Positions 31,618-62,589 of a DNA stretch of 64,000 nt are shown here, piece after piece; position 1 is the first letter of the stretch, and each line of letters starts with the position of its first letter. The DNA comes from Octopus vulgaris. Lineage: Eukaryota. Under the pieces are notes generated by a model. It saw nothing but the letters and a program-made list of their open reading frames with translations. It was not told the DNA's origin and ran no database searches. Location of the stretch: contig OX597817.1 in assembly GCA_951406725.2 (NCBI GenBank), positions 37,386,001 to 37,450,000 of the forward strand, written 5' to 3'. A program made the position numbers and the translations under genes.

Positions 31618-31812
31618 ATATGTGGTTGTGTATTACTGGGCATTGGTATCTACACACGCGCCAATGACACGCCAGCCTGCATCACATCTTTAGGCAGCAA
31701 CTTGTTTTTGCCTGTTGCTTTCATGCTTATAACCCTGGGCAGCATTGTCATCATACTGTCATTCCTCGGATGTTGCGGGGCAATCAAAGAGGTTCGCTGT
31801 ATGCTTGCAACG
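31618..31812 (+). CDS. Tetraspanin exon (end of TM1, small extracellular loop, TM2, intracellular loop)
   Basis: Acceptor tttttctttatcAG, then 195 nt open: ICGCVLLGIGIYTRANDTPACITSLGSNLFLPVAFMLITLGSIVIILSFLGCCGAIKEVRCMLAT. It contains the diagnostic FLGCCGA.KE..CML motif. GTAAGT donor at 31813, phase 0/0. Confidence 0.96.
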
Positions 31813-31887
31813 GTAAGTTCTGTTTCAGTTTAATTATTCAACTTTTTTCCAAAGAGATTTTTTAATCCAGTAGTTACATGTTATTAA

Positions 31888-32100
31888 GGCGGCGAGCTGG
31901 CAGAAACGTTGGCATGCCGGGCGAAATGCTTAGCGGTATTTCGTCTGTCTTTACGTTCTGAGTTTAAATTCCACCGAGGTTGACTTTGCCTTTGATCCTT
32001 TCGAGGTCGCTAAATTAATTACCAATTGCGTACTGGGGTCGATCTAATCGACTGGCCCCTCCTCAACAAATTTCGGACCTTGTGCCTAGAGTAGGAAAGA
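31888..32100 (+). mobile_element. SINE family B variant, 75 bp downstream of exon 2
   Basis: Family B head and core with an alternative tail (cccctcc...aaatttc...ccttgtgcct). Confidence 0.88.
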
Positions 32101-32276
32101 ATATTCACATGCTATTGTTTATAGTTTTACCTACTTCGAGTTCAGCTGTTAAAAATGAAATGTCTCACGTTTTTTAATGAGTCTAAATGCTTATGACGTA
32201 AAGAACACACAATTCTCACTGTTAAGAACAAAACTTCCCAAATGGAAAGAGAATTCCAAAATATTCTTTTGGTCTA

Positions 32277-32617
32277 ACTCTTTTACTTTCTTACTTGTTT
32301 CAGTCATTTGACTGTGGCTATGCTAGAGCACCGCATGTCCCTCCCCCAACATCAAGCCATGCTGGAGCACTGCATGTCCCCCCAACATCAAGCGATGTTG
32401 GGGCGACAAACACAGACGCACAAACATATAGGCACATACATATCTATATATATACATATATACGACGGGCTTCTTTCAGTTTCCGTCAACCAAATCCACT
32501 CACAGGGCCCGAGGATATAGTAGAAGAGACTTGTCCAAGGTGCCACGCAGTGGGACTGAACCCGGAACCATGTGGTTGGTAAGCACGCTACTTACCACAC
32601 AGCCACTCCTACACCTA
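32277..32617 (-). mobile_element. SINE family A copy (internally deleted and duplicated)
   Basis: Reverse-complement match to both head and tail of family A. Confidence 0.85.
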
Positions 32618-34342
32618 CGAACATAACTGTTGAACATCTCGTATGTTTACAGATGTGGTTTTGTGTCCTACATGTAGCCTTCGTTTTTAACTCTCAAAAG
32701 GAATCTCTTTTAAAACTCAGTATTTATATGCTTTAATTGTAGCTTTATCTACTTCGAGTTCCATGATTAAAACGATTTATATATACGCTTTAGCATTTAG
32801 TTATTTATTTATTTATTGCAACTGTGAAGTTTACAGCTGTTTTTGATGTTACTACTCTGTGACGGTGATTTATAAACCCATTCTGAAAATGAAAGTCAGT
32901 GAAATAAAACCTCAACATACTAGAAATATTCAACGACCCTGTCTAATCCAATACCCAAACTGAAATTTAATACTCATAATATAATTCAACACCCAAGCAA
33001 AATTAAACATTTTAGTAAAATTAATCAGGCGTGTAAATTCTTGACCTGAGTGAAAATCAACACCTAGGAAATATTTAACATTTAAGCATTTTATAAGACC
33101 AATTCCTATGGGAATATCCATCTAAAATGAAATCTACTTCTCTATTGCTTAAGTTATCCAGTTCTGTCTTGGTGCATGGCTTTGCGTTTGATTATTTTGT
33201 TCTCAACCATGTGGTCGCGGGTTCCATCCAGATCCACTGAATGTTCTATCATATCTTTAGGGTGATATAAGGCTAGAAGCTTGCCAAGAATCTCCCGCAG
33301 TTCCTTGTAGATATAGTTTGGTGAACTATAACTTTATAACGTAAATAGTATCTAAATATAGCGAGGAAGTTGCGGATACAAATGTTAAGAAGTTAAAAGC
33401 ATTCAATATCCCTGATTAAAGTTTTATGTATTTTTTATTTATAACCTGGTTAATCCATTGTCACTATAAGTTTCAAAATGGTTTGATTTATATCTATGTT
33501 TCTGTGACCCATATTCTATGACTCCAGACTACGGGCCTGAGTGTAGGTAAGAGAATTATCTAACTCGTTGACGTGTTCTCAGTTTTAAACACCAGACTGT
33601 GCTCAGTGCCTTACTGTATTTGATGGAGTACATTGGCCCGAGCCTCATCTGGCTCTTTCATCGGCGGTACATGGAAAGCAGTTGGTGTTACCCCACTGCA
33701 GTCCAACACCAAACTCTTATTCTACGTCAAAACAAATGCAAATGAATTCCTTCATCGACATTGCACAGTAATGATGATTTCTTAAAATTACCCATATCAT
33801 AAGAAGAGTATTACTGCTTGAGGTTTGAATACATGATAGAAAAGAAGTTTATTTTCATATTCTGTTAATCAAAACCACCACAGCTCATACTAATAATAAA
33901 TAAACAAAATAGATAAACGCTGATTAAAAAAAAAATTATTATATTTATTCTTTTGGCTGTTGAATTCTACACAGCTCTAAAGTAATTCGCCTGTGTAGAA
34001 TTTATGTTGTCATATATGTATGTAAAGAATTTTCCTGTGATTGAGGATTTTCTGGTTTTAACTTGATTTGGTTTCGCTGTGTAATTTGGTTTCTTCATAC
34101 AGAACATGCTGTATTAATGCCAAACTTAATGGTAGGCAACAAATTGATAGATCTCTCTTTTTCTCCCAACATATATATATATGCATATGCATATTTATGT
34201 ATATATATATGTGCATATGCATATTTATGTATATATATGCATGTGCATATTTATTTATGTGTGTATTATATATAATATATATGTAGGTATATTTATGCAT
34301 GAATATATTTGTTTATATACATATTTGTTTGTATATATGTGT

Positions 34343-34343
<1 letters not shown>

Positions 34344-34409
<66 letters not shown>
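34344..34409. repeat. (GATA)n microsatellite
   Basis: Directly visible. Confidence 0.97.
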
Positions 34410-35886
34410 CACGCTCTCTCTATTTTATTCGATCATCTAATGATTGATGTAAGTAATCACGCAGTAATACGAAGATTTTCAATATCTTATCAATGAAGAA
34501 GGTCTGTTCACATATCTTTAGGTAGAGGAGAGCCTTTTGAATCACAAACCTGAATGGGATTCTTTGAAGTTATTTTACAAAGTTCAACATCCCAATAACA
34601 TGTATATTACGAGCCGAGCAAACATTTACAGGAACTGGTTGCTTGAAGACTGCATTCTTTATAAATAAGGACAACATTTGTTGCATGTTATTTATGAGTA
34701 AAACATAAACTGGGCGATGAGAGGCAGGGAAATAGATGCAACATGTTGAATAAATGAACGATGTTTGACAAGTGATAGATTTCAATAACTGAGCAGTTCG
34801 CAACTGTCCGTCCCGCGATAAACTACCAACTGGATATTTGAAATACGATGCGTCGCTGGATCAGATATTCAATCCTAAGCTAATTCTAATCCTACAGACA
34901 TAAGTTCAAAGACGTTCCAGATGAGACTATCATGTCTTATATTAGACATATATTAACTAATGTGGACTTTCTGTTATTAAGAGAATACGATCAGTTGAAG
35001 TAAATTTTGTTCCTATTTCTAGCCGTTAGAATTACCGGGTACAGTTTTCTCTGCGGTGTTTTGATGTTACATAGAGTTCTGATTACAGTAAAAGTAATCC
35101 ATTGGAAAATATTAATACACTTATGGTCTGCCCAAGCATAAAACATAACATTCTCATATGTGGTCTGTCCAAACATAAAATATTAAACATTATCACTGCC
35201 GCTACTGGGTGACTTTCGACTACTACAGATATATTTATGATTTTGAATCCAGTACGTCCATAGGAGATATTACCTTTAAACGAATACCACAGTTAATTTG
35301 GCTTTTCACGCTGCATTCGCAATAAGTATGATACATAGATGACTAATATAATACGCTTTTGTATATACAGACGCGACACAGTCATCAACAAACTCAGTCT
35401 GGTTTATTTAACATTATTCTACATAGTTATTGCTTCACCTTCTGTTTCAAAGTCATATCTCACGTACAAATGACATCAGCAATAACATACAAAATCTTAA
35501 TGAACCTGAGAAAGTTCTTGAAATACACTGTTCGTCCAAGTAATAGAAGGACAATTTTAGTATAGATGGATTAACTATTTTCTCTTACTAGTCTTTTTAC
35601 GTTGGGGCAGCGTCTTCAAAATTTTTGACGGTTATAAGGTCCTCTTTACTTAATAACTTATCTTATCGAAGAATTTCTGTCAACTAAATGCTATGTTCTA
35701 AGTATTACGTTTAAAATTTTAGTTAACAGAAATTCTTAGATAAGTTTTGATTTTGTTTTAAGTAATATGGTTAAATTTTATTCGATTATTTATTAAAACA
35801 TGTATTTTCCTATATTTATTTGGTAATTATTATAAGTTAAGATACGTACATTTATTTTATTATTTTCATTATTATCATTATTCTTT

Positions 35887-36008
35887 TAGACCTGATGAGT
35901 GACTATATTTTTAAATAGAATTAATTTTAGTTCGATTTAGTTTTAAATCGAATTGATTTTATTATTATTATCTATTTGAAGATATAGCCACGAAACGCGC
36001 GTAGTCTA
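35887..36008 (+). ncRNA. Type I hammerhead ribozyme motif, canonical core, very long stem II
   Basis: TAGAC-CTGATGA-[GTGACTATATTTTTAAATAGA...TCTATTTGAAGATATAGCCAC]-GAAA-CGCGCG-TA-GTCTA. Stem I is TAGAC/GTCTA, 20 of 21 positions pair at the base of stem II, stem III is the palindrome ACGCGCGT, and the cleavage triplet is GUA (after 36003). Confidence 0.8.
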
Positions 36009-36281
36009 TTTATTGTTTATGTACTTTATTGATTTTTAGAATAATATTTTTTATAGTATATTCAATTTTTTCTATATGGTGTGAATAACGTCTTTCACTA
36101 TTTAATTGCTTAATAGAGGTTTTTCTCGAAATTATATAAATATATATATATATGTATATATGAATATATATATATATATGTATGTGTATATATATATATG
36201 TGTATAAATATGTATGCATATGTATATACATATGTATATATGTGTATATATATGTATATATGTGTGTATATATGTATATAT

Positions 36282-36690
36282 ATATATATATGCATATGTT
36301 TATACATATGTATATATGTATGCATATCTTTATATATATGTATATATGTATGCATATGTTTATATATATGTATATATGTATGCATATGTTTATATATATG
36401 TATATATGTATGCATATGTTTATATATATGTATATATGTATGCATATGTTTATATATATGTATATATGTATGCATATGTTTATATATATGTATATATGTA
36501 TGCATATGTTTATATATATGTATGCATATGTTTATATATATGTATATATGTATGCATATGTTTATATATATGTATATATGTATGCATATGTTTATATATA
36601 TGTATATATGTATGCATATGGTTATATATATGTATATATGTATGCATATGTTTATATATATGTATATATGTATGCATATGTTTATGTATA
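36282..36690. repeat. 30-bp minisatellite (tatatatatgtatatatgtatgcatatgtt)n
   Basis: About 13 near-identical tandem units derived from TA/TG microsatellite. Confidence 0.93.
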
Positions 36691-39600
36691 TGCATATATA
36701 TGTAACTGTCACTTGCTCATATTAACATGTAGTGGAAATGAAACCCAGAACTAGAGATTTGTAAATAAACTTAATCACATAACTATATCTGTACACGTTA
36801 TTTTGAACATAAGAAAGTCTTCCTCATTCAACATCATTTTTCTCCTCTACGTCAATTTACAATTCATTACCTGCGCACTACTACTCCTGGCAAGAAAATC
36901 ATCACTGTCTCGGGAAGGATAGAGTGAGAGTTGCTTCCATCTCTCTCTTTTTGTTTTTTGTATTTTTCACCAATGTTACAGGAACCTGACGCAGCAATTT
37001 ATTGCTGTATTTAATTTATCTTCGAGTCTCTTTCCTACTGATTCTAAATATTTGCCTTTTCGTTCTTCGTGTTTTTGTTTCTTTAACACCTTATTGTTTT
37101 TTTTTAACACCTAGGAATAACGTGATAAATATTTAGATTTAATTTTTTAAGTCTTGGAAATACCGTTACAAATGACGCCCTACAGTGAAAAGCACCTCAT
37201 GCTATCCGCGATGTTATTCAAATTGTGTTGAAAACATCATTAACTTTCTCGAAACGCCATATATAATCTGATCTAATCTATTCTTATTTGGTCACACTTA
37301 ATTATTTCTTTCTATCTTCTTAATCTTCCTTATCCTCCTCTTCTACTACCTCTCAGCCTATTTGATAACTGTCATTTATATTCATTATTTGTGCTCTCGT
37401 TTTTTTTTTCTTGCCTTATTTCTCCTGCTTTGGCATCGAAATTTCCTCTTTCTAAAAAAATTCTATTATTATTATGTATTCATTAAGAAAAGCGGCGAGC
37501 TGGCAGAATTGTTAACGCTCCGGGCAAAATGCTTAGCACTATTTTGTCTGTCTTTACGTTCTGAGTTCAAATGCCAGCTTTGCCTGCTATTCTTCCGGTG
37601 TCGACAAAATAAGTAGTAGTTGAACACGGGGGGTCGATGTAATTGACTTACCACCGAATTTGCTGGCCTGGTACCAAAATTTGAAACCTTTAAGTATTCA
37701 TTAAGAAAAGCGGCGAGTCGGAAGAATCGTTGAATACAGGGGTCGATATAATTGACTAGTCCCCTCCCACCAAATTTGAGGCCTTGTGCCTTTACTAGAA
37801 AGGATTATTATTATTATGAATAATAATATAGGTTGGTAGGATCAGAAAAGCATCAGACAAAATGTGAAATTGAGTTCTGGCTGTTGACGTGCTGTGATAA
37901 AATCCTGCCGAATTTTATCTTTCTGGGGTCGATAAAATAAAGTACTACTGAAATGCTGGGATTTATTAAATTGATTGCCTCCCCTCCAAAAATTTGAGAC
38001 ATTGCACTTATGTTGACACGCAATTATTGTTATTACTAATGAGCGTAGTAACTTTTCCTGCTTTTCCGATTTCAAGTCCCACCAAGGTCGACTTGGATAT
38101 TCATCCCTCCGGGATCAATAAAATAGAATATTCAAGTACTTGAGTCGATTTAATCAGTTGATTCATCAACCATCAAAATCTTAATCTTCACCTCTGTTAG
38201 AAGCAGATATTTTTATCATTAATTTTTGTTTTTATATTACGAATTATATCCCGGTAATTACCTTTGCAAATTTGTTGTTTTTCTCTTCTGTAACTGTTTA
38301 GATTTGGGGATCTACCTAATCTAACCTTCTAATTACTTCTTGACTCTACTTCTCGGCTATTATTATTTAAAATTGATCCAGGAACAGCCCACTTTTTTCT
38401 TGTTTCTTGTTTTTCTTCAGCTTTGAACATACCAAACGAACTTTCCTTGATTTTCTCCTATAATAACACAACAACACTCTATCATTTTCCCGTTGACATC
38501 CTCAGATAATTTCCATGCAATAATGATGCAATGTTTGTATTACAGATGGTTTCTATTTACATTTATCTTCAACTCAACGCTCGCTAGATGAGAGGTTTTA
38601 TTTTTATTGTCAGCTCTAGCCCCATCAACGCTGTTATTTAACGACAGCTTTTGTACATCAAAGAGAAAAGTATTTTATGCTTTAAAAAATCAACCTCATC
38701 TTTATTTCTTATTCTTTTTTTTTCTCTTGACGTATTTTTCCTTTTCTTTTCAATGTATAAATTCTAGAAAGGTTGCCAACCAAGACTAAAGAGCTTCTCC
38801 AATCCATTTGTCAGTTTATTCTGCTGTTTCATTATCTGTTACTGTTTGTTATAGTTTAACGCATGTCTGTGTGCAGAGAGATATTCCCGTTTGACACTGC
38901 CTGCAGGACTACAATATCGATTTGTGTCATTGGCAGAAAGCCATAAATTTTGGACAAGTTGGGATCGTATCGTCTATCATATCAATCCAACTATTTCACT
39001 GCTACGTATTTTATCTACCCGATATAGTCGACTGTACCCAAGGTGACAATCACAAGCAAATATAGCCTGACAGTATGTACCACATTTTAGTTAATTATTT
39101 TAGGTATCTATGTAATCGCGAGTGAACATTGATATCTCTCGTCAACCCACTTATGGATGAGTGGAATGTCTAAGACATGACAGTTGAATAGCGGGTATAT
39201 CTCATATGCCAGTTTACTGGAGGAAAGTTGAATGAAGTATCTTGCACAAGGATAAAAATTATCACCCGGTTTACCGCTTTATGATCATGAGCTGAACAAC
39301 CTAACCATGCCGTCACATGATTTCATTAGTTTAATTTATCAAAGCTATCATTCGACAAATTTACCACCCGGATATTGTAGATTATCTCAACTTAAGTATT
39401 GTAGTACTACTTATATTATCACTGTAAGAGCTTGGTTTGCTATTTACTAAGGGGGATATCAGCCTGGTTCTTATTTTACCTACTCAGGAAGGTAGAAAGG
39501 CAAAGCCGGTTTTACTGGAATTTGAACTCAGAACGTAAAGACATGATGCAATAGAACAAAACATTGCAGTAATGCCGTTTACACATCCAGACAAAACTCT

Positions 39601-39732
39601 TCGTAATTCTTTTCGTTCATGAAAAAACCTTTGTCAATTGATTAAAGCAGAAGGAAGTCTAACAAGACCGAAATATGCCAGTGGTTGCCTCCCTTGTCTA
39701 GAAATAAAAATCTGATTTGTTTTCTTAACATA

Positions 39733-40107
39733 CTCTTTACTCTTTACTCCTTTAATTGTTTCAGTCATTTGACTCGGCCATGCTGGAGCACCGCCTTTAG
39801 TCGAGCAAATCGACCCCAGGACTTATTTTTTGAAAACCTAGTACTTATTCTATCGGTCACTTTTGCCGAACCGCTAAGTTACAGGGACGTAAACAAACAA
39901 CCATCGGTTGTAAGCGACGTTGGGGGAGGGGGCAAACGCAGACACAAGCATATACATACACATACATATATGTATACATATATACGACGAGCTTCTTTCA
40001 GTTTCCGTCTACCAAATCCACTCACAAGGCTTTGGTCAGCCAGAGGCTATAGTAGAAGACACTTGCCCAAGTGGTTAGTAAGCAAGCTACTTACGACACA
40101 GTCACTC
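39733..40107 (-). mobile_element. SINE family A copy
   Basis: Reverse-complement match with a deletion in the head. Confidence 0.85.
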
Positions 40108-40984
40108 ATTGTAAAATTAATTCCTAATTTCTGGAAATTAATTCCTTTCAGCAACTACCACTAGGTTTTTGTTGTCTCTATCCAACTAAGATGTAAATAA
40201 ATTCAGAATTTTTCCGGGCGTATATATGTGTGTGCTTACGTAATTGTCTACTTCATTCCTTCCCGTGAAAAAACTGGAGTTATTTCCCTTAGCTCATGTA
40301 AAGTTATAATTGTATTAGACAGATATTATAATGACCAAGTTTAAAGTAATGTAATTTGCATTCGTATCATCTAGTCAACCGATGCCACACAATCAAAAAA
40401 CATTGCCACAAACACCACCACAACACTAACCATTATAGCTATCATAACTACCACCATAACCACACCAGTCTACGTAACCACCAACATGCCAACAACCACC
40501 ACAATAATCGCAAGTACGGCAGTAACAGCTGCAACCACCTGCACAAAGAACACGACCACAACCATCACAACCGCAGCCACCACAGTCATCATTTAACCAC
40601 TACCGCAAGGACAATAACGCAATCACAATAACCACAACCAACACCACCATCACCACCAGTACCACGACCAACATAACCAATAAAAGAGAGCTGATACAAC
40701 AATACTAAAAATAATAATGCAATTTTGAAATAATATTACTGAATTGTATGTCTTGTTAGAAGGAATGGCGTCATTTTAATATGGAAATGAACAAAAGAAC
40801 TTGCGGCTACAATATAGCAAATCTAATGTATTTTCTTTCCTTCTCAGAGAAATTATTCCCCTAGGTCATTACATTGCTAGACTCGTATATAGATGGCTGC
40901 ATGTCTGTCTCTGTGTTTAGATAAAACAAGTATTTCTACGTATTTTTATTCTATATATGTTTGTGTATATACCTACACACACAA

Positions 40985-41035
<51 letters not shown>

Positions 41036-41128
41036 CATATATATGTATGCATATATATGTATGTATATATATATATGTGTATACATAGATATATATGTAT
41101 ATACATACATTTATATATATATATTTAT

Positions 41129-41159
<31 letters not shown>

Positions 41160-41360
41160 CACACATATAGACATATATATGTATGCAGATATATGTGTAT
41201 ATATATGCATATACATGTATGCATATATATATATGGATATATATATACATATATATGTACATATTTACATACAAATACACATACATATATACTTATATAT
41301 ATGCATACACATATGCATACATATACATATATATATATATACACACATATATATATATAC

Positions 41361-41392
<32 letters not shown>

Positions 41393-41436
41393 GTATACAT
41401 ATATATATATACATACATACATATATATATATATAT

Positions 41437-42870
41437 CACAGCTGCATCCTTGTTACACGAGAAAAGCCATTGGCAAGAAGACTTACTGAAATGATTCATG
41501 AGTGTTTCCATGTGATGCCCTTATATGACTTTTAAGACCAGCCAAGCTTTTACACATTTTATTACATACTAGACAACTGTGCTGGCTGGCAGATGAAACA
41601 GGTGCCACTACATGCACTCTCTTAACATGACTTTTTAGACCTCAAACTGAGATGCACACCCTTCCATATTTTACACTTGTTCTGTGTGAATTTTAATAGC
41701 GACTTCATTGTTTATCATCGGTCGATTTCTGTGAGAATTTTGATGGCTCACCAGTCCTGCACGACTCAAACACCTCCACCCACAAACCACACACATAAAA
41801 AGCAACACTGTCTGACTTTCCACAGGTTCCCCACTTCTAAGTCTCCTCCTAATTCTCTCATACTTCACTCTCTCCCTCTCGAACCTTGAACAACCATCAT
41901 GCACTATCTTCCTCCATCCATGGCGGTCTTGTGCTTCCCTCCCCCAATTATCAGCAGCAATTCCTGTCTGTATGAGAGCATTTTTAAGGCAATCTTTAAA
42001 TCTTAGTTTCGGCTTACGCACTGGTCTCCTGCCATCTTCCAACTCACCATACAATAGCTGCTTGGGCAGTCGCTCATCCCTCATCCTTACCAAATGCCCC
42101 ACCCCCCCTCAAACGTCTTTGTAAAATCATTGACTCTATACTTCTACTGCCACACCTCTCAAGCACCACAACATTACTAATAGACATTTTCCAGTTTATC
42201 CCCAAATCTTTCTCAGACAGTATTGATGAAAATCGTTCCAATTGCCTTACCTGCCTACGGTAAACAACCCATGCCTCACTACCATATAGCAAAGATGGGA
42301 GGACACATGTGTTATATACCTTAACTTTAATTTGTGAAAATATTTTATGTTGCTTCCACAGACGTCTATCAAGCCTACCAAAAGCACTACTAGCTTTGCT
42401 GATTTTGTATGAAATTTCATCAAGACCAGCAGTGCTTAAGGTAATTCCTAGATAAATAAATCTAGGTACGGTCTCTAACCTTCGATCATTCACAGTTATA
42501 AAAGGTTCCACATATATCTTGGAGGAAGTGCGTTGGTACATTATAACAGTTTTTTTTAGATTGATTGTTAGACCTAATGCTGCACATGCTGCAGAAATCG
42601 CATTTACCATGTGCTGCATATCTTTCTGAGAATACGCCAACAGGTCACAATCAACTGCATACAGAAACTCAACAAGGTGAGAATGCAAAAATTTCGTTTT
42701 GGCACAGAGTCTTTTTAGAGGGAATAGTTTTCCTGTTGTCCTATATCTTATATAGACCCCCTTAAGATCAATCTTTAAAAGCTATTTGAAAGATTATTGA
42801 GAAATATATAGCAAACAGTGTAGGAGCAGGAATATCACCTTGTTTTACACCATTTTCTACAGAAATTGGA
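41437..42870 (-). mobile_element. 5'-truncated RTE-clade LINE (frameshifted RT pseudogene)
   Basis: GVKQGDIPAPTLF, EFLYAVDC (decayed YADD), GLTINLKKT, KVYNTCVLPSLLYGSEAW, RLPKQLLYGEL..G.R...KPKLRFKD, and a C-terminal C2H2 finger CVVCGWRCLSRAGLVSHQNSH. Confidence 0.92.
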
Positions 42871-43052
42871 TACATATATATTTATATACATACATATATA
42901 TACATATATGCATACATACATACACATATACATAAATATATATCACGTGATCACGTGAGCGATCAGGCTATCAGATGTTGCTACACATCGCTGGTCACAA
43001 TGCGCTTCGCATTGTTTTAGCCTTCAAATGACACCACCCCGCATGGCTAAGC

Positions 43053-43720
43053 AAAATTTGTCATGGCGATACCTGCTCAGAGGTCTACGTAAAGTGGCAG
43101 AAAATGTATGGAGAGGAGTGTATAAGCCGCACACAAATCTACGAGTGGTTCAAACGCTTCCTATGATGGACGAAAAATGTCAGTAGTGACAACATCTGGC
43201 AGACCCGCAACCAGCAGAACTGATGAAAACATTGCAGATGTGCGTCCAGTTGTGAAGGGAAATCGTCAAATCACCATCCGTGAGTTATCAGAGGATGTGC
43301 AGATTAGTAACGGGTTAGTTCAGTCCATTGTCATTGAAGTTTTGCGTATGAGATGCGTGTCAAAATTGCTTTCAGCTAACCAAAAATACACTCAGGTTTC
43401 AGTTGCACAAGATCTTCTTGATTGGGTTGAGAACGATGAAAATTTTTTGAAAACTTTGCGTAGCCTCTGAGCAGGTATCGCCAAGCTTTTGGCAAAATTT
43501 GATGCAGATTCTCTTCTCAGCTTTCTCTGTCATGGCCAGTGCAACGATCACCACTACTGTAAACAGCGTAAATGAGCTAGAACGTTAAAACTTTGTGCGC
43601 ATGCACAGCAGAGTCGAAGGTCAATCTGTGCCAAGCGGCTTCACTCTGCATACTTTAGCTTCGTTTCTATATATACATGGTCTGATCAACAGTCCGGGTA
43701 CTTACTGATCAGACCACGTA
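43053..43720 (+). mobile_element. Non-autonomous mariner (Tc1/mariner) remnant with transposase HTH fragment
   Basis: YGEECISRTQIYEWFKRF, SGRPATSRTDENI..V...V..NRQITIRELSEDVQIS (mariner N-terminal HTH domains). The terminus is tgatcagaccacgta, and there is an internal inverted duplication at 43063-43095/43452-43484. Confidence 0.85.
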
Positions 43721-44249
43721 CATATTTATAGTCATATATGTATACACATATAAGTATACGTATATAATATATATGTGTGTGTGTATAAACGCACAATCAC
43801 AGACATTCACACACACATATATAGTGTTTATAAAATAAAGAAAATGTATATGGTAATCTCTGAATTTATTAAATACTTCTTCTGTAATCGTAGCTAGACT
43901 GACGATGTCGTTATTTTAATGAAACCCTGTGATTCTATAGTATTTAGGTATTTCGGAATGTTCAACATTATTCTCTATAAAATTTGTTTTGAACAATGTT
44001 GATAAGAACTGAGTTACATATGAAAGGATATATTTGATAATGTAGTCCTAGATACACCGTGTCTAAGGAAGCGACTGGATGGCCAAAGCTGTGGGGTGCC
44101 TCTTTTTTATATTCTAAGTTTATATCCAGCTCAGGTAAACTTTACCTTTCATCCTTTTGATTTCGATAAAAGAAAGCACGAGTTAACTGTTGGTACCGAT
44201 TATATCGACTAACAATCATCATCATCATCAACAACAACAAGTCTTATGG

Positions 44250-44470
44250 CTCATAGTGCCGGTTACATGGATTTCATAGTGAATAAGTGACTAATATGAA
44301 CGGTGATGCGATCACGTCACAAGTTTACCCATTTACAGATTAGCGGACCGGAGCAACTTGAAATAAAGTGTTTTGCTCAACAACACAACGCATTGCGCGT
44401 TTCAGGAATCTAGACTGCTATCTTGCGATCACAAATTCAGCAACCTAACCACTATGCCACGCACTTCCAC
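44250..44470 (-). mobile_element. Old tRNA-derived SINE (related remnant at about 39100-39320)
   Basis: Reverse-complement head gtggaagtgcgtggcatagtggttagg and body ttgagcaaaacactttatttca...tgtaaatgggta. Confidence 0.6.
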
Positions 44471-45292
44471 TATTGACTGACACGCTGCCCGCAAAATTGT
44501 TGTCGGTGTATCTAAATTAGTTACAATTAGAAACAGTATTTAGTGGGGTTTTTCGGTATTTTTTCTTTCCATTCATTTTCTATGAAATTGTCTAATGACT
44601 ACGATTGAACGGTTAATACAGCAACACTGAACTTCCATTTCAATTTCAGATTATAGATTGTAATAACTTGCTGCGAGCGTTTACTAAATCAGACAAGTAG
44701 ATACATGTGAAAGAAAGGGAGACAAAGTCACATGACTAATTAAATGAAATACGTTATATAGCGCAATAGTTTTAATTGAATAATGAAGCTGGCTTCGGGC
44801 GTTCAGGACGTCAATTTACATCTTACTTTAGTTACAGTGTCATGTCCTGAAGAAAATTATTTAACTACTTTTCTAAGATTTCATGCGTAGTTACAAAGTA
44901 TTGTTCACGTTTTACAAAGAAATCTTCATTCTGTTATTGTAAACTAATCGCCACAAAAGTAATGAAATATAAAAAGACAGTTTTAAAGCTGTTTCTTGCT
45001 ATATTCCTATGAAAGGGAATCAGTAAAGCTAGTGAGGAGAGAAGAGATGGATTAAATTACTTCAAAGTGTTTGCTACTTCGATCTCTTGTATTTCTGTAT
45101 TCAAACTCAACGGTGATTGTTGTTAAAGTTGTTTTCACTGTTTTTGTTGTTGTTTACCAGCAAATCCTCCCTGACAGAGCAGACTTACCATTAAAAATAT
45201 TCCTGTGACAGCCTTTTTGGATATATTTTTTTCTTTACATATGACAATAAGGCATTCCTTGATGTAATTTAGCAACTATTCCGTGCAGATTT

Positions 45293-45645
45293 TGCGGTAG
45301 CCTGCTTACCAAACACATGGTTCCGGGTTCAGTCCCACTGCGTAGCACTTTGGGCAAGTGTCGACCAAAGCCTTGTGAGTGGATTTGGTAGACGGAAACT
45401 AAAAGAAGCCCATCGTATATATATATGTGTGTGTATTTGTGTGTTTGTGCTTGTTCCCCCAACATCGCTTGACAACCGATACTGGTGCGTTCATGTCTCC
45501 GTACCTTAACGGTTTGGCAAAAGAGACTGATAGAATAAATACTAGGCTTACAAAGAATAAGTCTTGGAGTCGATTTGTTCGGCTAAAGGCGGTGCTGCAG
45601 CATGGCCGAGTCAAATGACAAACAAATAAAAGAGCAAAGGAGTAA
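45293..45645 (+). mobile_element. SINE family A copy
   Basis: Match to the family A body and tail. Confidence 0.85.
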
Positions 45646-45790
45646 ATTGAAATGCTTTCTTTACTTCTTGAATCAGCAAAAAGATGTGTCTACGATAGCA
45701 AAGAAGTATTTTTCAAACTACCATATCTCAAAAAGGAAAAGACACATTGGATAATATATTCAAAGATATCTTAAATAATACTGATTATGG

Positions 45791-46184
45791 GGATCTTTAC
45801 CTTTTGACCGACAGATTTTTAAAATATATTTTTGTAACTGAACACTTTCAAACTTCGTATACTTGTAAAATGTGTCACATAAAACATCTTTAACTTTTGG
45901 CGTTGTTGAGAAAATTCTATATTTTGGAAGTTATTTTTTTGTTAAAGTTGTATTTCGGTAAACAACAGCAATAATTTTATTCAGCTGAATACACGTCATT
46001 GATTGGTTGAAATTACCGAAATACGACAACTTTTAAAAAAATAACTTCCAAAATACAGAATTTTCTGAACAACGACAAGAGTAAAAGATGTTTTATGTGA
46101 CACATTCTACCAGTATACGAAGTTTGAAAGTGTTTAGTTTCAAAGAATTATTTTTTAAATCTGTCGGTCAAAAGGTAAAGATCC
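45791..46184. mobile_element. Foldback MITE with about 170-bp TIRs and an 8-bp TSD (Merlin- or MULE-like)
   Basis: GGATCTTTACCTTTTGACCGACAGATTT...AAATCTGTCGGTCAAAAGGTAAAGATCC, with TSD GATTATGG at 45783-45790 and 46185-46192. Confidence 0.9.
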
Positions 46185-46409
46185 GATTATGGATCTGATT
46201 GATCAAGGCTGACTTGAGACAAAAAGAACAACAATGACAGAAATAAAGAAATTTGTCCTGTCTTCATATTGTTTTGGTTGCTTTTGACCAAATACATTGC
46301 TTCGTGTTTATTGAGGAGCTTGGAAACAGATTTCTCTAAATTTTATATATCGTTATATTTGCGAAGGGAAACCGTTTTAACCTGGAATCAAAACTGATGT
46401 CAGTGGCAT

Positions 46410-46412
46410 TTC

Positions 46413-46505
<93 letters not shown>

Positions 46506-46510
46506 TACAC
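46410..46510. repeat. (CT)n(CA)n microsatellite
   Basis: Directly visible. Confidence 0.95.
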
Positions 46511-47662
46511 ATTATGAATTTCTTTAGGCATTAATATGCAAATCTATTAACAAATAGTATGTATTGACAAAAATACCTTTGTTAGAGTAGCATAATCAAA
46601 ATGATAACTTCAACAAGTATTACGCGCGCGGGCACATACACACACATGCACATATTCATACGCACACACACACACACATACGGCCAGTAGATAGAGCCCA
46701 CTTCTTCCTACACATTATATGAATTTTTTGAATAGGTACAAAGATCTTGATTAAGTTGCGGTTACATTTTTGTTTAACACTAGGTCATTCCTGACCGATC
46801 AACCCTAAAATTAAAGAAAAAAAACTCTATAGCTGTGATTGGTTGTGGTGGATGTCTGTTATTCGAAACTAAGGATTTTCACTCCGAATTATCGAGAAAG
46901 CTGCTGGCCATTTCACAATCATGTGTCCCCTAAACGAATCGAAATGATACGTTTCCATCTCACGAGGTACGGATCAATGCGTGGTTATTAATGATGACAG
47001 TTACTCAAAATGATACGCAGTGATCGAACCTGGAAACCCATGATTGCCTGGCAGATTTCTTGAGCATTTGGCTTTACTGTGTCTATAGATATGATTAACA
47101 AATATATTTTTTTCCTATTTATTTACGACTACATTAACAAACAGTTTGATATTTTATGACAATCAAATGTTTTATAAGACAAAATTTGGCTCCTTTTCTT
47201 GTAGCTCTTGCGACCACATACAGCCCCACGCCACTTGATGATTTGAGAATGTTAATTCATAGTAAAATATATAAATTCAAAGGTTTAACGGCATGTAAAC
47301 TTTCCGCTAAAACATTTGCATCATAACTCAAATGAACTTCATCCAGAAATATGATGGGGTTTCAGACGTAAATATCTTACTATTTTATACTCTTAGAAAA
47401 ATAAACTCGTACAAATATTGGATAAATATAGTTATATAGCATATATAAACATTGGATAAATGCATTTTCAAAACAAAACTATTATATGAGTGCGGGAATA
47501 TTTCCGTTGTCTTAGCAGTATTTCAACGAAACAGAAGGTGTAACTTTTCCCAGGATTCAAATGAATTATACATTCTTTCTTGATGGAGCTGTTTTTATTT
47601 GTTTCATTTTTAACTATTATTGTAAGGAATGGTATTGAAATGCCTTAAAGACAACCGCTAAA

Positions 47663-47779
47663 ATAGATAGATAGATAGATAGATAGATAGGATAGGATAG
47701 GTAGGTAGGTAGGTAGGTAGGTAGGTAGGTAGGTAGGTAGGTAGGTAGGTAGGTAGGTAGGTAGGTAGGTAGGTAGGTA
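47663..47779. repeat. (GATA)n grading into (GGTA)n microsatellite
   Basis: Directly visible. Confidence 0.95.
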
Positions 47780-48368
47780 TCCTATCTATTTTGCAACCAA
47801 TTTTTCATATTTATTTATATCTTTTCTTCCTTTCATTTTGTTTTCTATATTTTTAAGCGTTGAACTTAAACATTTGTTAAAAACTTTTCCCTTGCGAGTT
47901 GTTTTCTGTTTGTGCTCCTTGTCGTATGCATGTATGTATGCACGAGTGACTGCACAAACGGAAGAAAGTAGCACTCAGCACATTTTGTTAGAGTTACATA
48001 TATTTAGAAGCGGTTTGACTGAATTTCACATTACTTAAAGTTTTGTTGACATAAGATACGTCCAACCTACCACATTGCAGAGTCGATGTGGACGTATTCT
48101 ATGCAAACAGAACTTTAACCAATTAAACTGTTATTTATTCTATTTATCTCCAACTAAATGTGTTGAATGTCATAGTTCTCCGTTTCTTCACTCATTCAGA
48201 TAGATAGATCGATATATAGATAGATATAGATATACAGTAAAATAAGGATTCAGATAGATAGACTCAGATAGATATGCACCAGGATAAACCTGTGGTTCCG
48301 GCCTGTGGTTGGTAAGTAGGCCATGCGCCCGTCATATATGTATATATATCATATATGTATATATATAT

Positions 48369-48457
<89 letters not shown>

Positions 48458-48564
48458 TTACATATGTATATATTTACATATGTATATATTTACATAAGTA
48501 TGTATATATGTATATATATATGCATATATACACGTGTGTATGTACATATATATATTATTATTCA

Positions 48565-48637
48565 GGTCAATGCCTGAAATCGAACTCAGAATCTTGGGGT
48601 TAGTAGCCTGCGCTCTTAACCACTACGCCATATGCCC
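48565..48637 (-). mobile_element. tRNA-derived (Ser-like) Pol III cassette of the PLE-like repeat; not a true tRNA gene
   Basis: GGGCATATGGCGTAGTGGTTAAGAGCGCAGGCTACTAACCCCAAGATTCTGAGTTCGATTTCAGGCATTGACC. It has an A box (TGGCGTAGTGG) and a B-box-like GAGTTCGATTT, but the stems are imperfect. The flanks match 6093-6175. Confidence 0.6.
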
Positions 48638-48679
48638 GTGGGCAATTATGGAGTTAATTTTAGGGCAGACAATATCACT

Positions 48680-49450
48680 TTCATACTATATTTGACGCGT
48701 AAGTAGAACTCATGTCTAGAAACCTCTTCACATACTTAGATTGTTGGAAAAATCGACAATAGCGCCCTCCAATGTATCCTGCTATCTACTACGTATTACT
48801 AATATTATATCTAAACAACCCAAGGGAAATAACCTATACCACCTGCAGATGTTAGCGAAGCGTTCAATATTTGATTCTCACGATCAACCGACCTAATTCT
48901 GCATTTCACTACTCACAGCTTTGAGCTGCTAAACACTATTATTGCACTTCCTTAATTTGAATCTTAAACCTTAAAGACGTCATTCATACATTTCTATACA
49001 TACATACTTTTTTGAATGCCCAGTACTCCGATAATTCTGCATTTTTACAGTTACACTTTTTCCATGATAGTAGATAAATTTTTTATTCCACAACGTATTT
49101 GTAGTGACTTCATGCAGGCATAGCGTGGACTCGATCCTCGATTGCTGAATTTCACTTAACATTTCAACAGCGCTTTTCTCGCGGTAAAACAATAGTTTTT
49201 CTGTGAATGACAGTAGTCATACATTTCCCAGATGCCTTCGCTAAGCAGAATAATGTCTTTGCCTCTCGCCAACTTCCGAAAACCTCTCTCGCCAACCTCC
49301 AACAATCTCTCCCTCCTCCAGCAGACAGTTTTTCATGACGCAAAATACACCTTTTGTAGCAGTTACAACGAAATTGCTTTCTTATATCATAGTAATAAGG
49401 CGTTTCAATAGAACATCTCTACCCCTGAGAGTTACCGGGTACGCCAGCTA

Positions 49451-49451
<1 letters not shown>
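48680..49451 (+). mobile_element. Possible non-autonomous Helitron
   Basis: The 3' end has an ACCC...GGGT hairpin (49421-49440) followed by acgccagCTAG|T. The 5' TC start is uncertain (about 48680 or 48785). Confidence 0.45.
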
Positions 49452-49486
<35 letters not shown>

Positions 49487-49828
49487 TCATATATATATAC
49501 ATATAGATATGAATCTGTATATATATACTCATATATATATACACACATATATATATACACATATATATATATACACATATATATATATATACTCATATAT
49601 ATACATATAGATATGAATCTGTATATATATACACATATATATATATATACACATATATATATATATATATACTCATATATATACATATAGATATATATCT
49701 GTATATATATATATACATATATATACACATATATATATACATATATATACATATATATATATATGTATACATATGTATTTTTATACATATATATATATAT
49801 ATACATATATATACATCCACATATACAA

Positions 49829-49886
<58 letters not shown>

Positions 49887-50937
49887 GAGAGAGAGAACGG
49901 TGGGTTTTTTATATATATATGTAAGCTCTTTTTTAATCGTTCTTTTCCACACGCCACTTCTATATTTTTATCTATCATCATTTATACTTCCACCTTTCAA
50001 CGAACTGTGGCGCATCTATCCGATGGTTTGTAAACATCGCAGATTTAATTTATGTTTAGAAGTCACCATTAACGATCTGTTTTATTTCTCATCCATCTAT
50101 ATCAGTGGCTAGTTTTGTATATTTATGCATGTGATAAAACATTATGTAATGTTTACAAATGGATGTAATGCGAAAGTACATACATTTATGACTTTGAGTG
50201 TGCGTGTGTGTGTATACACACGCGCACACATCGAATATTTATCGGTAATAAAGATAGTCATCACAACTGATAGGTGAATGATGGACTTGGTCGACCTGAA
50301 TATGATTGAAAGTAAAAGCTGGAGATGCTATGTTTTTGTTGAAAGTAATAGCCAACGTTTCCGACAGGCCCTTTAATCAGAGTAGAGACGTAGGGAGGGG
50401 GCATTGAGTAAATCGTTTGAGGCTATACCTGGAACACTAAGAAAGGTCACAGCTACTAAATGAGATGTATTTATCAAAGATATTTCGTTCGATATAGCCT
50501 GTAAAAATCGTTTGGCAATAAAATGGTATGTTTTCGAGATATGAGATGTAGAATCAACTTGAGACTGGTTTAACAGGCAGGGGCCTGCTTACGCAATATT
50601 CTTTTCATGTATTATCATATGCAGACCCATTACTTAAAAGTTGGATTTCTTGTCAGCCAATGAGGCAGCATGTTCATTTGATCGGCTAGAAATAGCAGCT
50701 AAAATTCTTGAAATCATGCCTTCTAGAAAAAATAATAAATGTAGGCCTTGGATGGTAATGCGTTCATCCAGTAGGCTTTCTGAGCACATGAAGGGTAACT
50801 TTAGCCTGATAGGACAGGAATGGACCTAAACACCGCAAGGTAATCTGCTACAGTATAAGTGCGGGCATGGCTACGCTTTCTACTATAGCCCTAAGCTACC
50901 CAACACCTTGTTAGTGAATCTGGAAGACGGAAACGAC

Positions 50938-50981
<44 letters not shown>

Positions 50982-50987
<6 letters not shown>

Positions 50988-51292
50988 GCGCAATGGCCCG
51001 GTGGTTAGGACAGCGGACTCGCGGTCGTAGGATCGCGGTTTCGATTCCCAGACCGGGCGTTGTGAGTGTTTATTGCGTGAAAACACCTAAAGCTCCACGG
51101 GGCTCTCGCAGGGGTGAAGATGGCAATCCCTGCTGTACTCTTTCACCACAATTTTTCACACTCTTTCTTCTGTTGGCCTGCTCGCTTAGCCAGCGGGGTG
51201 GCGTCATTTGAAGGCTAAAACAATGCGAAGCGCATTGTGACCAGCGATGTGTAGCAACATCTGATAGCCTGGTCAGTCACATGATCACGTGA
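50982..51292 (+). mobile_element. tRNA-derived SINE family C (partial copies at 9750-9985 and 42943-43052, minus strand)
   Basis: Head gaggcgcaatggcccggtggttagg...ggtttcgattccc (A/B boxes); shared body gctcgcttagccagcggggtggcgtc and tail caacatctgatagcctg. Confidence 0.85.
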
Positions 51293-51299
51293 TAGATAA

Positions 51300-51330
<31 letters not shown>

Positions 51331-51452
51331 AGTGCTAAGTACCAATACACAAATCGGACCTTGAGTTTAACTTCGGTTAAATATCAATGAAAATATACAT
51401 ATGCTCATATTTTGAATTCTGTCTTTCCTAATTGCATCACAATGTGTGTGTG

Positions 51453-51505
<53 letters not shown>

Positions 51506-51631
51506 AACGACATCTTAAAAGCTGGTATTATTTTCTTATGTCTTTTATAATTTTGTGGTTCGGCAGCAGACTTACAATCAATCCTGGGGTCGATTTGTTC
51601 GACTAAACTCTTCAAGCTAGTACTCTAGCAT

Positions 51632-52335
51632 GGAGGAGGAGGAGGAGGAGGAAGAGGCGGAGGAGATGAGGAGGAGGAGGAAAAGGCGGAGGAGATGAGG
51701 AGGAGGAGGACGACGACGACACGACGACAACGACGGCGATGTCCATGCTGATAATATTGGTTATGATGATGATGGTGGTGAAAACGACAGCAACGATAAT
51801 GATGACAACAGCGATGATGATGATCATGATGATGATGGCTTAGTTCCCTCATTTTGTATTTTTTCCGTAGTTTCTATTGCTGCCAAGAATTTCAACTAAT
51901 CTTTTCTCGCCAACCTAGTAGTATCCTTTCATTCGTCGTCTCTCTGTATCACCAACCCTACCATAGTAACCGCGACCAAAACTCTTTCCTATCATTACCA
52001 GCATCACCACAACAACACCCAATCACCACCACTGAAACGACCACTAATACCACCACCACCACCACCACCACCGCCTCCATCAGCAGCAACTGTAGTAGTA
52101 GCTGTGAGCATAAACGGTTCAACATCAAATCATACATGACTGTGATATTTACGAAAAAAGAAAATAAGGAAGACGATGAGGAGGATAACGACAACAGGAT
52201 GATGACGATGGCGAAGATGATGATAGTGATGGTGGTGGTGGTGGTGGTGGTGATAATGATGAGGGATGATGATAATGATGATCATGCCAAAGACCATGTT
52301 GATGATGATCATGATAACGATGATGATTGTGGTGG

Positions 52336-52366
<31 letters not shown>

Positions 52367-52462
52367 AATGACGATGAACATGATGATCATGATGATCATG
52401 CGAATGACCATGTTGATGAAGATCACAATGATGATGATGATGAGGAGGAGGAGGAGGAGGCC
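51632..52462. repeat. Trinucleotide-rich low-complexity block (GAG, GAC, GAT, CAC, GGT); similar blocks at 40400-40690 and 58060-58200
   Basis: Directly visible; it produces spurious D/E-, H- and T-rich ORFs. Confidence 0.88.
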
Positions 52463-52752
52463 GAACAAAATGAAGAGAGAGGTGAGGTCTATTTGCTGAA
52501 ATGCTACTACTTTGATAAACTGACTTGATGTGACTTTGGCAGATTCACCTTGAAGTTATCTTGGCGTGTTCCTTCTCTGAATCACGAACACAGATAATGA
52601 CGAGAGTTTTCGAAAGATCGATAACAAGAGTAAAATCAATAGTAGCGAAGGTAAATGAAAAAAAATATATATATATAAATTTATATATAAATGAATCGAG
52701 TAACATAAATCATTAAAAAAAGATGTTGTCATTAGCTGTTGGTCGAGCAAAA

Positions 52753-52770
52753 TGTCCACCAGATGGCAGA
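52753..52770 (+). promoter_or_regulatory. Candidate CTCF binding site
   Basis: TGTCCACCAGATGGCAG matches the bilaterian CTCF core CCASYAGRKGGCR in otherwise AT-rich, non-repetitive intron. Motif match only. Confidence 0.4.
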
Positions 52771-53087
52771 TAGGTTATGCGTGATAAGATGAAAGCTTGA
52801 ATAAGATATTGTGCACTCCTGCCATAACACGCATCCCGAATTAAGAACCAGAGTGAGTTTGGATCTAAGAGCAAGTAAAAGCTGAACATTGATCTGGTAG
52901 CTGAATGTATATGTGTGTATGTATGAGTTCGTGTGTGTGCCTGTGTATGTGGTACGTGTGTGTTTTAGGTTTCAGTTAAAACTTATAATACATAGCACCA
53001 TATAATAATGAGTTTACTAAGTGTATGCCCGATAGTGCAGCATAATTTCCAATGATAATTCTTTTAAAATATACGTACAGTTCAAAT

Positions 53088-53204
53088 CAGGCAACCTTCT
53101 TTGAGAAGCGGGCCGCATGAGCCATGTCTCATCATCAGGTAGACCACATTACTAAATAAAGTCAAGGCAACGTTTTGTTAGTCGTCGCAGTTTGCCTATG
53201 ACAG
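53088..53204. mobile_element. Small degenerate hAT-like MITE
   Basis: aggcaacc...gtttgcct inverted ends, a gcgggccgcat subterminal motif, and an imperfect 8-bp TSD gttcaaat/gtttaaat. Confidence 0.45.
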
Positions 53205-53624
53205 GTTTAAATATAGTGTAGAACGACAAAATCTATAGGGGCAGACAGAGTAAATATTTAATCTAAATTATTTCATTAATTAATATTTCGTCAAGCACTC
53301 ATTAGTGTGGAAGAAAAGATAAATTGTGCGCTATTTTCTGCTATTTGTGGCATCCGTTTGCCGTTTCAGACAGAGCAAAACATGAGTCGTGAGAATAATC
53401 TTTACTAGAATTCTTTTAAGCTAATCTCAGTATTCCCGCATTTATCAATGTGCTTTGTCTCCCTGTATCAGAGGAAAGAAAAGCTAGTACGTCATCGAGA
53501 AACAACCAGGTGCAGGGGTTTTCACGATAGTCTACATTGCTAAACTTAATCGATTTCCTGGGGTCTCACTCCATTTGTAGGCTGGCCTTGACTCCTTCTT
53601 GAATTCCTCCACACAGCTAAATAT

Positions 53625-54011
53625 TTAATTCTTTATTGCCCACAAGGGGCTAAAGATAGAGGAGGACAAACAAGGACAGACAAAGTGACTAAGTCGATTA
53701 CATCGACCCCAGTGCCTAACTGGTACTTATTTAATCGACCCCGAAAGGATGAAAAGCAAAGTCGACCTCGGCGGAATTTGAACTCAGAACGTAGCGGCAG
53801 ACGAAATACCTATTTCTTTACTACCCACAAGGGGCTAAACACAGAGAGGACAAACAAGGACAGACAAACGTATTAAGTCGATTATATCGACCCCAGTGCG
53901 TAACTCGTACTTAATTTATCGACCCCGAAAGGATGAAAGGCAAAGTGGACCTCGGCGGAATTTGAACTCAGAACGTCACGGCGTGCTAACGTTTCTACCA
54001 GCTCGCCACCT
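53625..54011 (-). mobile_element. SINE family B dimeric copy
   Basis: Two tandem body/tail units behind one head, flanked by a ccacacagctaaa direct repeat. Confidence 0.88.
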
Positions 54012-54710
54012 TCCACACAGCTAAACATTGTTGTTGGTTCAGTTATAGATGGCCTGGCCATGAAACAAACAGTATTAACATAATTACCAGTAACTGGTCA
54101 TTTTTTTTTTTTTTTGTTTTTTTTACCTAACTTCGTAAATTTTGTAAGAAAGACATGAACCGTAGCATTCACAAAGACAAAATAGGCCCAAAAACACATT
54201 TCCTTAGTAATAATAACATTTCAGACTGCTCAGTTTCTTAATGAAGCAACAGTTAAATATTCTAGTTATATTATGTAATATACACTGTGTTTTATCTCTT
54301 AGATACATAAAAGAATAGTTTTCACAGCTGCGTCTAATGTTGCGACAAAATATCGACAATTAAGCTATGTAAATAAATGTGCAAGTAAACACTTAAATAT
54401 ACCGGAGGAACACACGATTAATATTAGTAAATATCAAAATAATTATCTAATTACAATTACTACATAATAGTCATTAACATTAATTTTCATCGAGGGAAAT
54501 CGTCTGTGCAATCTACTCGTTAATTTCTTTTAGACACATTTCGTTTGGATAGTCTGAAAATAAAGAAAAAAATCACCGGTACTATATCATCACCTTTAAA
54601 AAAGAATTCATCGCCTTTGCCTACGAAATTTATGATGGCCGAAAATTATTATAAATAGTGGGTAGGCGCATACTATCTCTTTTTTAATCTAATGTTGAGT
54701 AGTAAATGTG

Positions 54711-55036
54711 AAGGAGCATGGCTCAGTGGTTAAAGCGTCGAGCTTACGATCATGAGGTTGTGAGTTCGATTCCCGGACCGGGTTGCGTGTTGTGTTCTTG
54801 AGCAAGACACTTTATTTACCGTTCACTCAGCTGTAGAAATGAATTGTGACGTCACAGGTGCCAAGCTGTATCTGATGTTGCCTTTCCCTTGAATAACACT
54901 GGTGGCATGGAGAGGGGAGGCCGGTATGCATGGGCGACTGCTGGTCTTCCATAAACAACTTTGCCCGGACTTATACCTCGGATGGTAACTTTCTAGGTGC
55001 AATCCCATGGTCATTCATGACCGAAGGGGGTCTCCC
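54711..55036 (+). mobile_element. tRNA-derived SINE family D with a 14-bp TSD
   Basis: Head catggctcagtggttaaagcg...gagttcgattccc; TSD gagtagtaaatgtg (54697-54710) / gagtagtagatgtg (55037-55050). Confidence 0.88.
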
Positions 55037-58707: not shown

Positions 58708-59097
58708 TTACTCTTTTCTCTTTTACTTGTTCCAGTCATTTGACTCTGACCATGCTGGAGCACCGCCTTTAGTCGAGCAAATCGACCCCAGGACTTATTC
58801 ATTGTAAGCCTAGTACTAATTCTATCGGTATCTTTTGCCGAACCGCTAAGTTACGGGGACGTAAACACACTAGCATCGCTTGTCAAGCGATGCTGGGGGG
58901 ACACAGACACACACATACACATATATATACATATATACGACGGGCTTCTTTCAGTTTCCGTCTACCAAATCCACTCACAAGGCTTTGGTTGGCCCGAGGC
59001 TATAGTAGAAGACACTTGCCCAAGGTGCCACGCAGTGGGACTGAGCCCGCAACCATGTGGTTCGTAAGCAAGCTACTTACCACACAACCACTCCTAC
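58708..59097 (-). mobile_element. SINE family A copy
   Basis: Full-length reverse-complement match. Confidence 0.9.
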
Positions 59098-62205: not shown

Positions 62206-62287
<82 letters not shown>

Positions 62288-62453: not shown

Positions 62454-62589
62454 ATTGTAGAAGATTTAGAAGCTTTCACAATACCGTACACATTGTACAA
62501 CCTGTAAAGCTTCCGATGCACATTTATATCCATTTATACCGCATATTACAACGGATTCTTGCTTTCACACGTGTTAAGTGTACCTTTTT

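Follow-up and report, generated by a model that had tools for sequence, protein, structure and literature searches.

We describe a type I hammerhead motif with an unusually long stem II, found in a tetraspanin intron of Octopus vulgaris within a stretch of 64,000 nucleotides, referred to here as the window. We consider it probable that it represents the hammerhead in the pseudo-LTR of a 5'-truncated copy of a Hydra-clade Penelope-like element (PLE), that the active element cut its RNA as a dimer, and that the cut RNA was often copied back into the genome. Truncation of sister copies frequently falls at the predicted cut site; we therefore think it likely that cutting worked for the retrotransposon and not for the tetraspanin gene of the host. 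Statements on published systems refer to the available text of the cited sources.

The hammerhead motif and its predicted dimer

The features of the motif, of the element copy and of the host gene are collected in Table 1. All parts of a type I core, namely CUGANGA, GAAA, an NUH cut triplet and the G10.1-C11.1 pair, are present in the motif; the triplet is GUA and the predicted cut falls at 36003/36004. The basal helix of stem II contains 20 of 21 possible pairs, two of them G-U, and one A-C mismatch at pair 4. In the minimum-energy fold stem I forms together with the 93-nt stem II (z = -5.74, with equal stability reached in 0 of 200 shuffles). The intact core, the GUA triplet and the UAGAC/GUCUA stem I reported in the first-pass annotation were thereby confirmed from sequence and fold, and the fold likewise bears out its 93-nt stem II, in which 20 of 21 basal pairs form, and its distal hairpin. 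As to loop I-loop II contact, the core has no terminal loop II close by, and stem I is only 3-5 bp.

Table 1. Coordinates of the features discussed, numbered from the first nucleotide of the window
Feature	Position	Strand	Basis or remark
Type I hammerhead motif	35887..36008	+	Read from sequence, folds, pattern scans
Stem I, UAGAC with GUCUA	35887-35891 with 36004-36008	+	Sequence, fold
Core, CUGAUGA and GAAA	35892-35898 and 35992-35995	+	Sequence
Stem II, 93 nt	35899..35991	+	Basal helix 35899-35919/35971-35991, distal hairpin 35927-35939/35944-35956
Palindromic stem III ACGCGCGU, 8 nt	35995..36002	+	Sequence
5'-truncated 3' UTR / pseudo-LTR of Hydra-clade Penelope-like element	35685..36135	+	Collinear with other loci; 87.6% to L008
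Short inverted fragment at the 5' junction, from the same element	35653..35688	-	Typical Penelope-like inversion
TA-rich microsatellite array, at the element 3' end	36133..36703	.	Insertion target type reported for Hydra elements (PMC8557442)
Tetraspanin exon	31618..31812	+	Pfam PF00335, E 2.3e-11
GT-AG intron holding the insertion, 31,231 nt	31813..63043	+	Read from DNA, not RNA
Next tetraspanin exon	63044..63121	+	In frame with the upstream exon; join read from DNA

Strict and relaxed scans for type I hammerheads on both strands of the 64-kb window returned 35887-36008 as the sole match. With Rfam, no hammerhead match up to E 10 was obtained in 35800-36100, and no hammerhead was among the best 150 of 180 matches for the whole window. 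Two decayed minimal hammerhead-like motifs of another repeat lie on the minus strand, antisense to the tetraspanin gene (5978-6030 and 26301-26353); each has a short stem II and a 4-nt stem III, with stem II broken in one and stem III in the other. They are probably the other motifs with a 4-5-bp stem II to which the first-pass annotation compared the present one.

Within a monomer, stem III consists of 2 bp and a tetraloop; in the predicted dimer two molecules share an 8-bp stem III. Cofolding two 35887-36008 copies gives as its minimum a double hammerhead of -84.3 kcal/mol, with binding of about -13.8. Two copies, carried by one tandem transcript or by two transcripts, would swap their stem I strands and pair their palindromes to build such a structure. 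Across sister families stem I is CAC/GUG, AAC/GUU or GAC/GUC, and stem III is always an 8-nt palindrome (ACGAUCGU, ACGUACGU, ACACGUGU, ACAAUUGU, ACAUAUGU or ACGCGCGU); the covarying positions of both stems are those not forced by the search pattern. A three-helix type I fold with covariation is thus found across sister families for stems I and III, and this covariation shows, at the level of sequence, that the fold was under selection while the elements were active. The A-C mismatch at pair 4 is common to the 44-nt and 93-nt families, but it then became part of the search pattern.

Dependence of cleavage on a dimer, as proposed in the first-pass annotation, is supported by prediction, namely by the cofold minimum and by the kept palindrome. 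A strict need for a dimer is not certain, because Cervera and de la Pena 2020 (available text) regard a helix III of 2 bp with a tetraloop as the more stable kind and report that the hammerheads of invertebrate retrozymes cleave efficiently as monomers. The latter hammerheads have loop-loop contacts, whereas such contacts are not evident in the window motif. In most family copies (e.g. L018, L011) a 5-bp GUAGU/ACUAC hairpin can be drawn across the cleavage site, in potential competition with the active fold; a short deletion has removed the downstream half of this hairpin from the window copy (36004-36020).

The element, its relatives and the stem II arm

The intronic hammerhead of the first-pass annotation is real, but its membership in the end of a high-copy retrotransposon, present hundreds of times in this genome, had been overlooked. 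The element copy spans about 35653-36135, including the 36-nt inverted piece, and has no ORF left; no PLE ORF remnant was detected by tblastn in the window and 30 kb of neighbouring DNA. Searching the genome with the element gave 905 first-look candidates, of which 40 were scored, and the other full-length matches were 84-91% identical. Two short anchors had 187 and 164 exact genome matches (reversed controls, 0). Summed contig depth over the element, which is not a copy number, was ~800-1,200x that of the flank in one run.

The motif sits in a dispersed repeat whose longer copies (L008/L031) run upstream into a decayed ORF with reverse transcriptase (RT) and GIY-YIG parts and Hydra motifs. 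The decayed ORF of L031 is, in six pieces, 61-81% identical to an intact 841-aa sister ORF (L047), which carries RIKWK, DKT, GLYRDD, CxCx5C, YIGST, CxxC and CRH; the Hydra-clade signature given by Craig et al. 2021 comprises RWK-like, DKT, CxCx5C, CxxC and CxH motifs (PMC8557442). L047 and L031 together display the Hydra-clade arrangement of a single ORF with RT, then C-terminal GIY-YIG, and these motifs, the placement resting on motifs compared by eye with published Hydra proteins. Pfam gave no passing match for the Hydra-type ORF. Two named homologues come from Argonauta, and one partial match comes from Octopus bimaculoides. Further Hydra-type traits are the pseudo-LTR hammerhead, insertion at a TA array, tandem or inverted truncated copies and an optional 3' tail (38/115 copies).

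Two other assignments were rejected. The Neptune clade had been taken as the first one and was dropped, as the Hydra motifs fit. A non-LTR retrozyme would consist of head-to-tail 150-450-bp hammerhead units of no coding origin; here there is a single copy, and longer copies reach an ORF.

Several related lineages were observed alongside. A young Hydra-type family (L047 3407-5929, L048-L059) has many intact 820-860-aa ORFs with near-identical proteins, unrecognised by Pfam, together with a 3.5-kb repetitive 3' region and 3,126 exact matches to its 3' anchor; a second anchor for the younger families has roughly 6,100 matches. The untranslated region of this young element contains a 1.8-kb spliceosomal intron (L047 about 7604-9432) that ends 13 nt before the hammerhead, and many short genomic copies of the family (L240-L309) are spliced retrocopies. 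Families with 38-44-nt arms occur in spliced and unspliced forms alike. For spliced copies of the window family, 0 matches were obtained at each of two guessed junctions. A short hammerhead-less lineage with a Hydra 3' end (L382, L387, L392, L394, L397-L404, L406, L407, L409, L415, L416), possibly a non-autonomous derivative, begins with an AT-rich 5' end whose position, ~100 nt ahead of the anchor and near the would-be cut site, varies little. At L031 177-5287 a 359-360-bp tandem array with two inverted arms, ~99% identical, adjoins a Hydra copy.

Preservation of the motif was followed in 47 distinct family copies with the whole motif, a sample enriched for copies like the window copy. The whole core is intact in 27/47, and the core together with the exact palindrome in 5/47. 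The window copy keeps all 4 CpGs, as do 5/47 copies, and lies 3.0% from the majority base, compared with 2.6-7.8% in 15 copies. Because the sample is biased in this way, intactness is not a sign of selection, and chance and sampling can account for the good preservation of the window copy.

Stem II has 93 nt in 27 of the 47 copies and 88-99 nt in 43 of them, so that the long stem II, whose conservation the first-pass annotation had proposed to check, is kept among copies of this enriched sample. Covariation did not appear convincingly within the family: double changes occur at 5 of 43 pairs versus 2.7 expected (36/500 shuffles); each is confined to 1-2 copies, and most involve CpG sites. Such a lack is as expected of copies that decay after insertion. 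The basal helix is 97% paired within the family, and RNAalifold picks another register for the middle of the arm. Arms of related families measure 16, 17, 19, 36-39, 44, 53-55 and 75-77 nt. Patterns based on the shared basal helix, which covered shorter and longer arms but not intermediate lengths, gave 1,308 matches with shorter and 286 with longer arms, and 0 in controls. A more distant Penelope-like family (L033 3744-5766; L052 9705; L138 5059) has a stem II of 53-54 nt built on another basal helix; independent origins of long arms are therefore possible.

5' ends of copies and competing explanations

In total, 115 window-family copies were anchored at their 3' end and the upstream stop of homology was mapped relative to the cut, loci picked by likeness to the hammerhead having been left out. 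Reading upstream, 36 ends fell at +22..+110, 41 of the remaining 79 at -3..+21, 12 of the following 38 at -4..-111, and 26 further up. The corresponding rates per nucleotide are 0.0042, 0.028 and 0.0033, a ratio of about 7 for a -3..+21 window that was chosen after looking, with nominal p values and with offsets uncertain by several nucleotides in AT-rich DNA. In constant-rate simulations, where the best 25-nt window was scanned, 0/300 reached the observed 0.51 (maximum 0.39). On a finer split, 14 of the 41 ends are at -3..+4 and 27 at +5..+21, most ends thus lying 1-21 nt downstream of the cut and not on it. As many as 26 of the 41 belong to inverted pairs and are non-independent; after removal of the 44 copies with inverted partners, 15 ends were left, with a ratio of 4.2 and a nominal p of 4e-5.

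Of the 5' ends in the young sister family (87 copies), 21 of 80 lie at -3..+25 and the hammerhead itself holds 4 of 59, which corresponds to a ratio of 5.3, or 4.5 for the 68 well-aligned rows. Among these copies 28/87 diverge from the unspliced reference where the splice acceptor lies, 13 nt ahead of stem I, and in 21 of the 28 the donor-side exon is visible beyond an intron of about 1.8 kb; the start site of this family therefore lies upstream of the hammerhead. For the third family group the end window was fixed in advance: all 53 rows gave 19/28 ends within it and a ratio of 5.2, and the 27 rows kept after removal of 26 rows of a diverged lineage that fits no reference gave 7/16 (ratio 3.3, p 0.018). 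Both sister families show a weaker pile-up than the window family. The accumulation of 5' ends at and just after the predicted cut site suggests that cut RNA was copied into the genome. The RT may have run off the cleaved 5' end, with up to about 20 nt lost afterwards at joining. We lean towards regarding these junctions as a record of cutting in vivo.

The same ends could have arisen next to a real element hammerhead for other causes, namely a nearby transcription start, stalling or fold-back of the RT, or AT-rich microhomology joining, which we regard as rather unlikely. The spread of the ends over about 25 nt, the 5-bp hairpin that many family copies can form across the site and the fold-back type of the inverted pairs mentioned above would agree with such causes, and the window family, for which no spliced copies were matched at the two guessed junctions, may have a start site near the cut. 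However, the peak window is no richer in AT (0.76) than its neighbours (0.79), and only 1 end falls at the base of stem II, the strongest structure and the place at which the RT should stall. In the young family the peak persists although transcription starts upstream of the hammerhead, and across three families with different downstream sequence the peak tracks the cut site. A separate question is whether selection acted on the long stem II as a functional module in its own right, for instance as a handle for the RT-endonuclease of the element or for an RNA chaperone. Arms of 55-93 nt do fold well with differing sequences (z about -3 to -8), and a UCGAAUU-like segment recurs in several arms. 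On the other hand, arms of 36-50 nt retain nothing more than the basal helix, closed by a loop without structure (z +0.1 to -1.6), and families of this kind are at least as abundant by pattern matches. Families with intact ORFs have 16-19-nt arms, and within the window family no covariation beyond that of shuffles was seen; we hold a selected module to be unlikely. Under the element-hammerhead explanation that we prefer, the ribozyme would need the basal ~8 bp of stem II, and the distal arm would be a tolerated extension that must stay paired.

It is very improbable, in our view, that the window copy actively cuts the nascent tetraspanin intron by concentration-dependent pairing in trans and so affects the gene. 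The motif does lie on the sense strand, 4,074 nt into the 31,231-nt intron, which agrees with the 4 kb and 31 kb of the first-pass annotation, and cutting of the nascent intron by this copy is possible. The core and palindrome are intact, as in so few of the sampled copies, the predicted dimer is favourable, and the insertion junction is present in assembled contigs from a single study, in two DNA-like runs whose organism codes differ, an occurrence that says little on selection. Yet pattern scans of the intron found no second sense-strand hammerhead as a partner, and the two other motifs are antisense, decayed and different in stem III. With natural flanks of 17-62 nt (three lengths) the CUGAUGA core pairs in folding with upstream sequence even in the dimer, and stem I has a probability of 0.01; the core of this copy is thus predicted to be sequestered within its own flanks. 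PLE hammerheads were weak or inactive in vitro (single motifs inactive, dimers weak; PMC4209133) or protein-dependent (PMC11167929), and splicing stayed efficient despite intronic hammerhead cleavage (Dye et al., Bentley lab, cited in PMC2995048). The intactness of the copy carries no weight as a sign of selection, given the bias of the sample.

A host role of the motif is unlikely, because there is no sense-strand partner in the intron, the flanks are predicted to misfold the core and the relatives are decaying. Host-conserved intronic hammerheads, such as HH9/HH10 of amniotes, are single-copy and conserved at one orthologous intron; the present motif sits in a high-copy repeat. We would rather see in the window copy a passenger, intact by chance, which would be cut rarely if at all, leaving splicing largely unaffected. 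As regards the tetraspanin gene, the finding is likely unremarkable. The most far-reaching version, in which Hydra-element hammerheads cut in vivo as dimers, stem III acts as a family-specific pairing code, cut RNA is a main template for insertion, intact sense-strand copies like the present one are still live substrates and RNA of the same family tunes the cutting of host pre-mRNAs including that of tetraspanin, appears to us, taken as a whole, highly doubtful. Just inside stem I, at 35870-35891, a U-rich tract and TAG resemble a 3' splice site on the host sense strand.

Relation to known systems and significance

Hammerheads in PLE pseudo-LTRs, the dimer model and the Hydra clade are already published. 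In Hydra-clade elements (Craig et al. 2021, PMC8557442), among which Octopus bimaculoides Hydra-1_Obim is listed, the hammerhead is likewise a sense-strand type I motif near the 3' end, and the ORF motifs, the TA-array target and the inverted 5'-truncated pieces are also alike. Their published stem II regions measure about 10-25 nt (File S2, PMC8557442), in contrast to 93 nt here and 16-99 nt across the lineage; the octopus elements also differ in the 8-nt stem III palindrome, which varies by family, and in an ORF of about 840 aa with an Asn/Lys-rich insert. The minimal, short-helix-III PLE hammerheads of Cervera and de la Pena 2014 (PMC4209133) share with the octopus motif the short helix I, the palindromic helix III, the G10.1-C11.1 pair, the dimer model and the many scattered truncated copies. 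Their 'larger than usual' helix II has 7-8 bp, compared with about 36 bp in three segments here, and the available text of that source reports no genomic footprint of cleavage, whereas in the octopus family 5' ends cluster at the cut site.

The Anolis Poseidon element PAc (Frangieh et al. 2024, PMC11167929) is similar in its pseudo-LTR hammerhead, optional 3' tail and AT-rich targets. According to the available text, cleavage in PAc required the protein of the element, insertion in vitro did not depend on cleavage, and RNA reads with ends at the site were absent; the genomic 5' ends of the octopus family, in contrast, do cluster there. Animal non-LTR retrozymes (PMC7229834; bioRxiv 10.64898/2026.07.22.740005) likewise carry a type I hammerhead, within a repeat that is rich in AT and connected with PLE ends, and many of their copies are intronic, but the window copy is the truncated end of a coding element and not a tandem unit. 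In Xenopus, 42-44% of retrozyme copies overlap introns, a depletion after normalising (bioRxiv preprint).

Among the openly accessible papers searched, none described a stem II of this length or 5' junctions located at the cut, though an earlier description elsewhere is conceivable. As the long arm makes plain, a large class escapes both Rfam and short-spacer descriptors; the genome holds at least 1,594 exact pattern matches of it. The weight of the finding is nevertheless on the junction footprint rather than on the tetraspanin locus. The role of the hammerhead in endonuclease-bearing PLEs was called unclear by Craig et al. (PMC8557442). As an inexpensive fossil read-out that scales to thousands of copies, the accumulation of 5' ends in three families would make the role of the hammerhead in Penelope-like elements directly testable.
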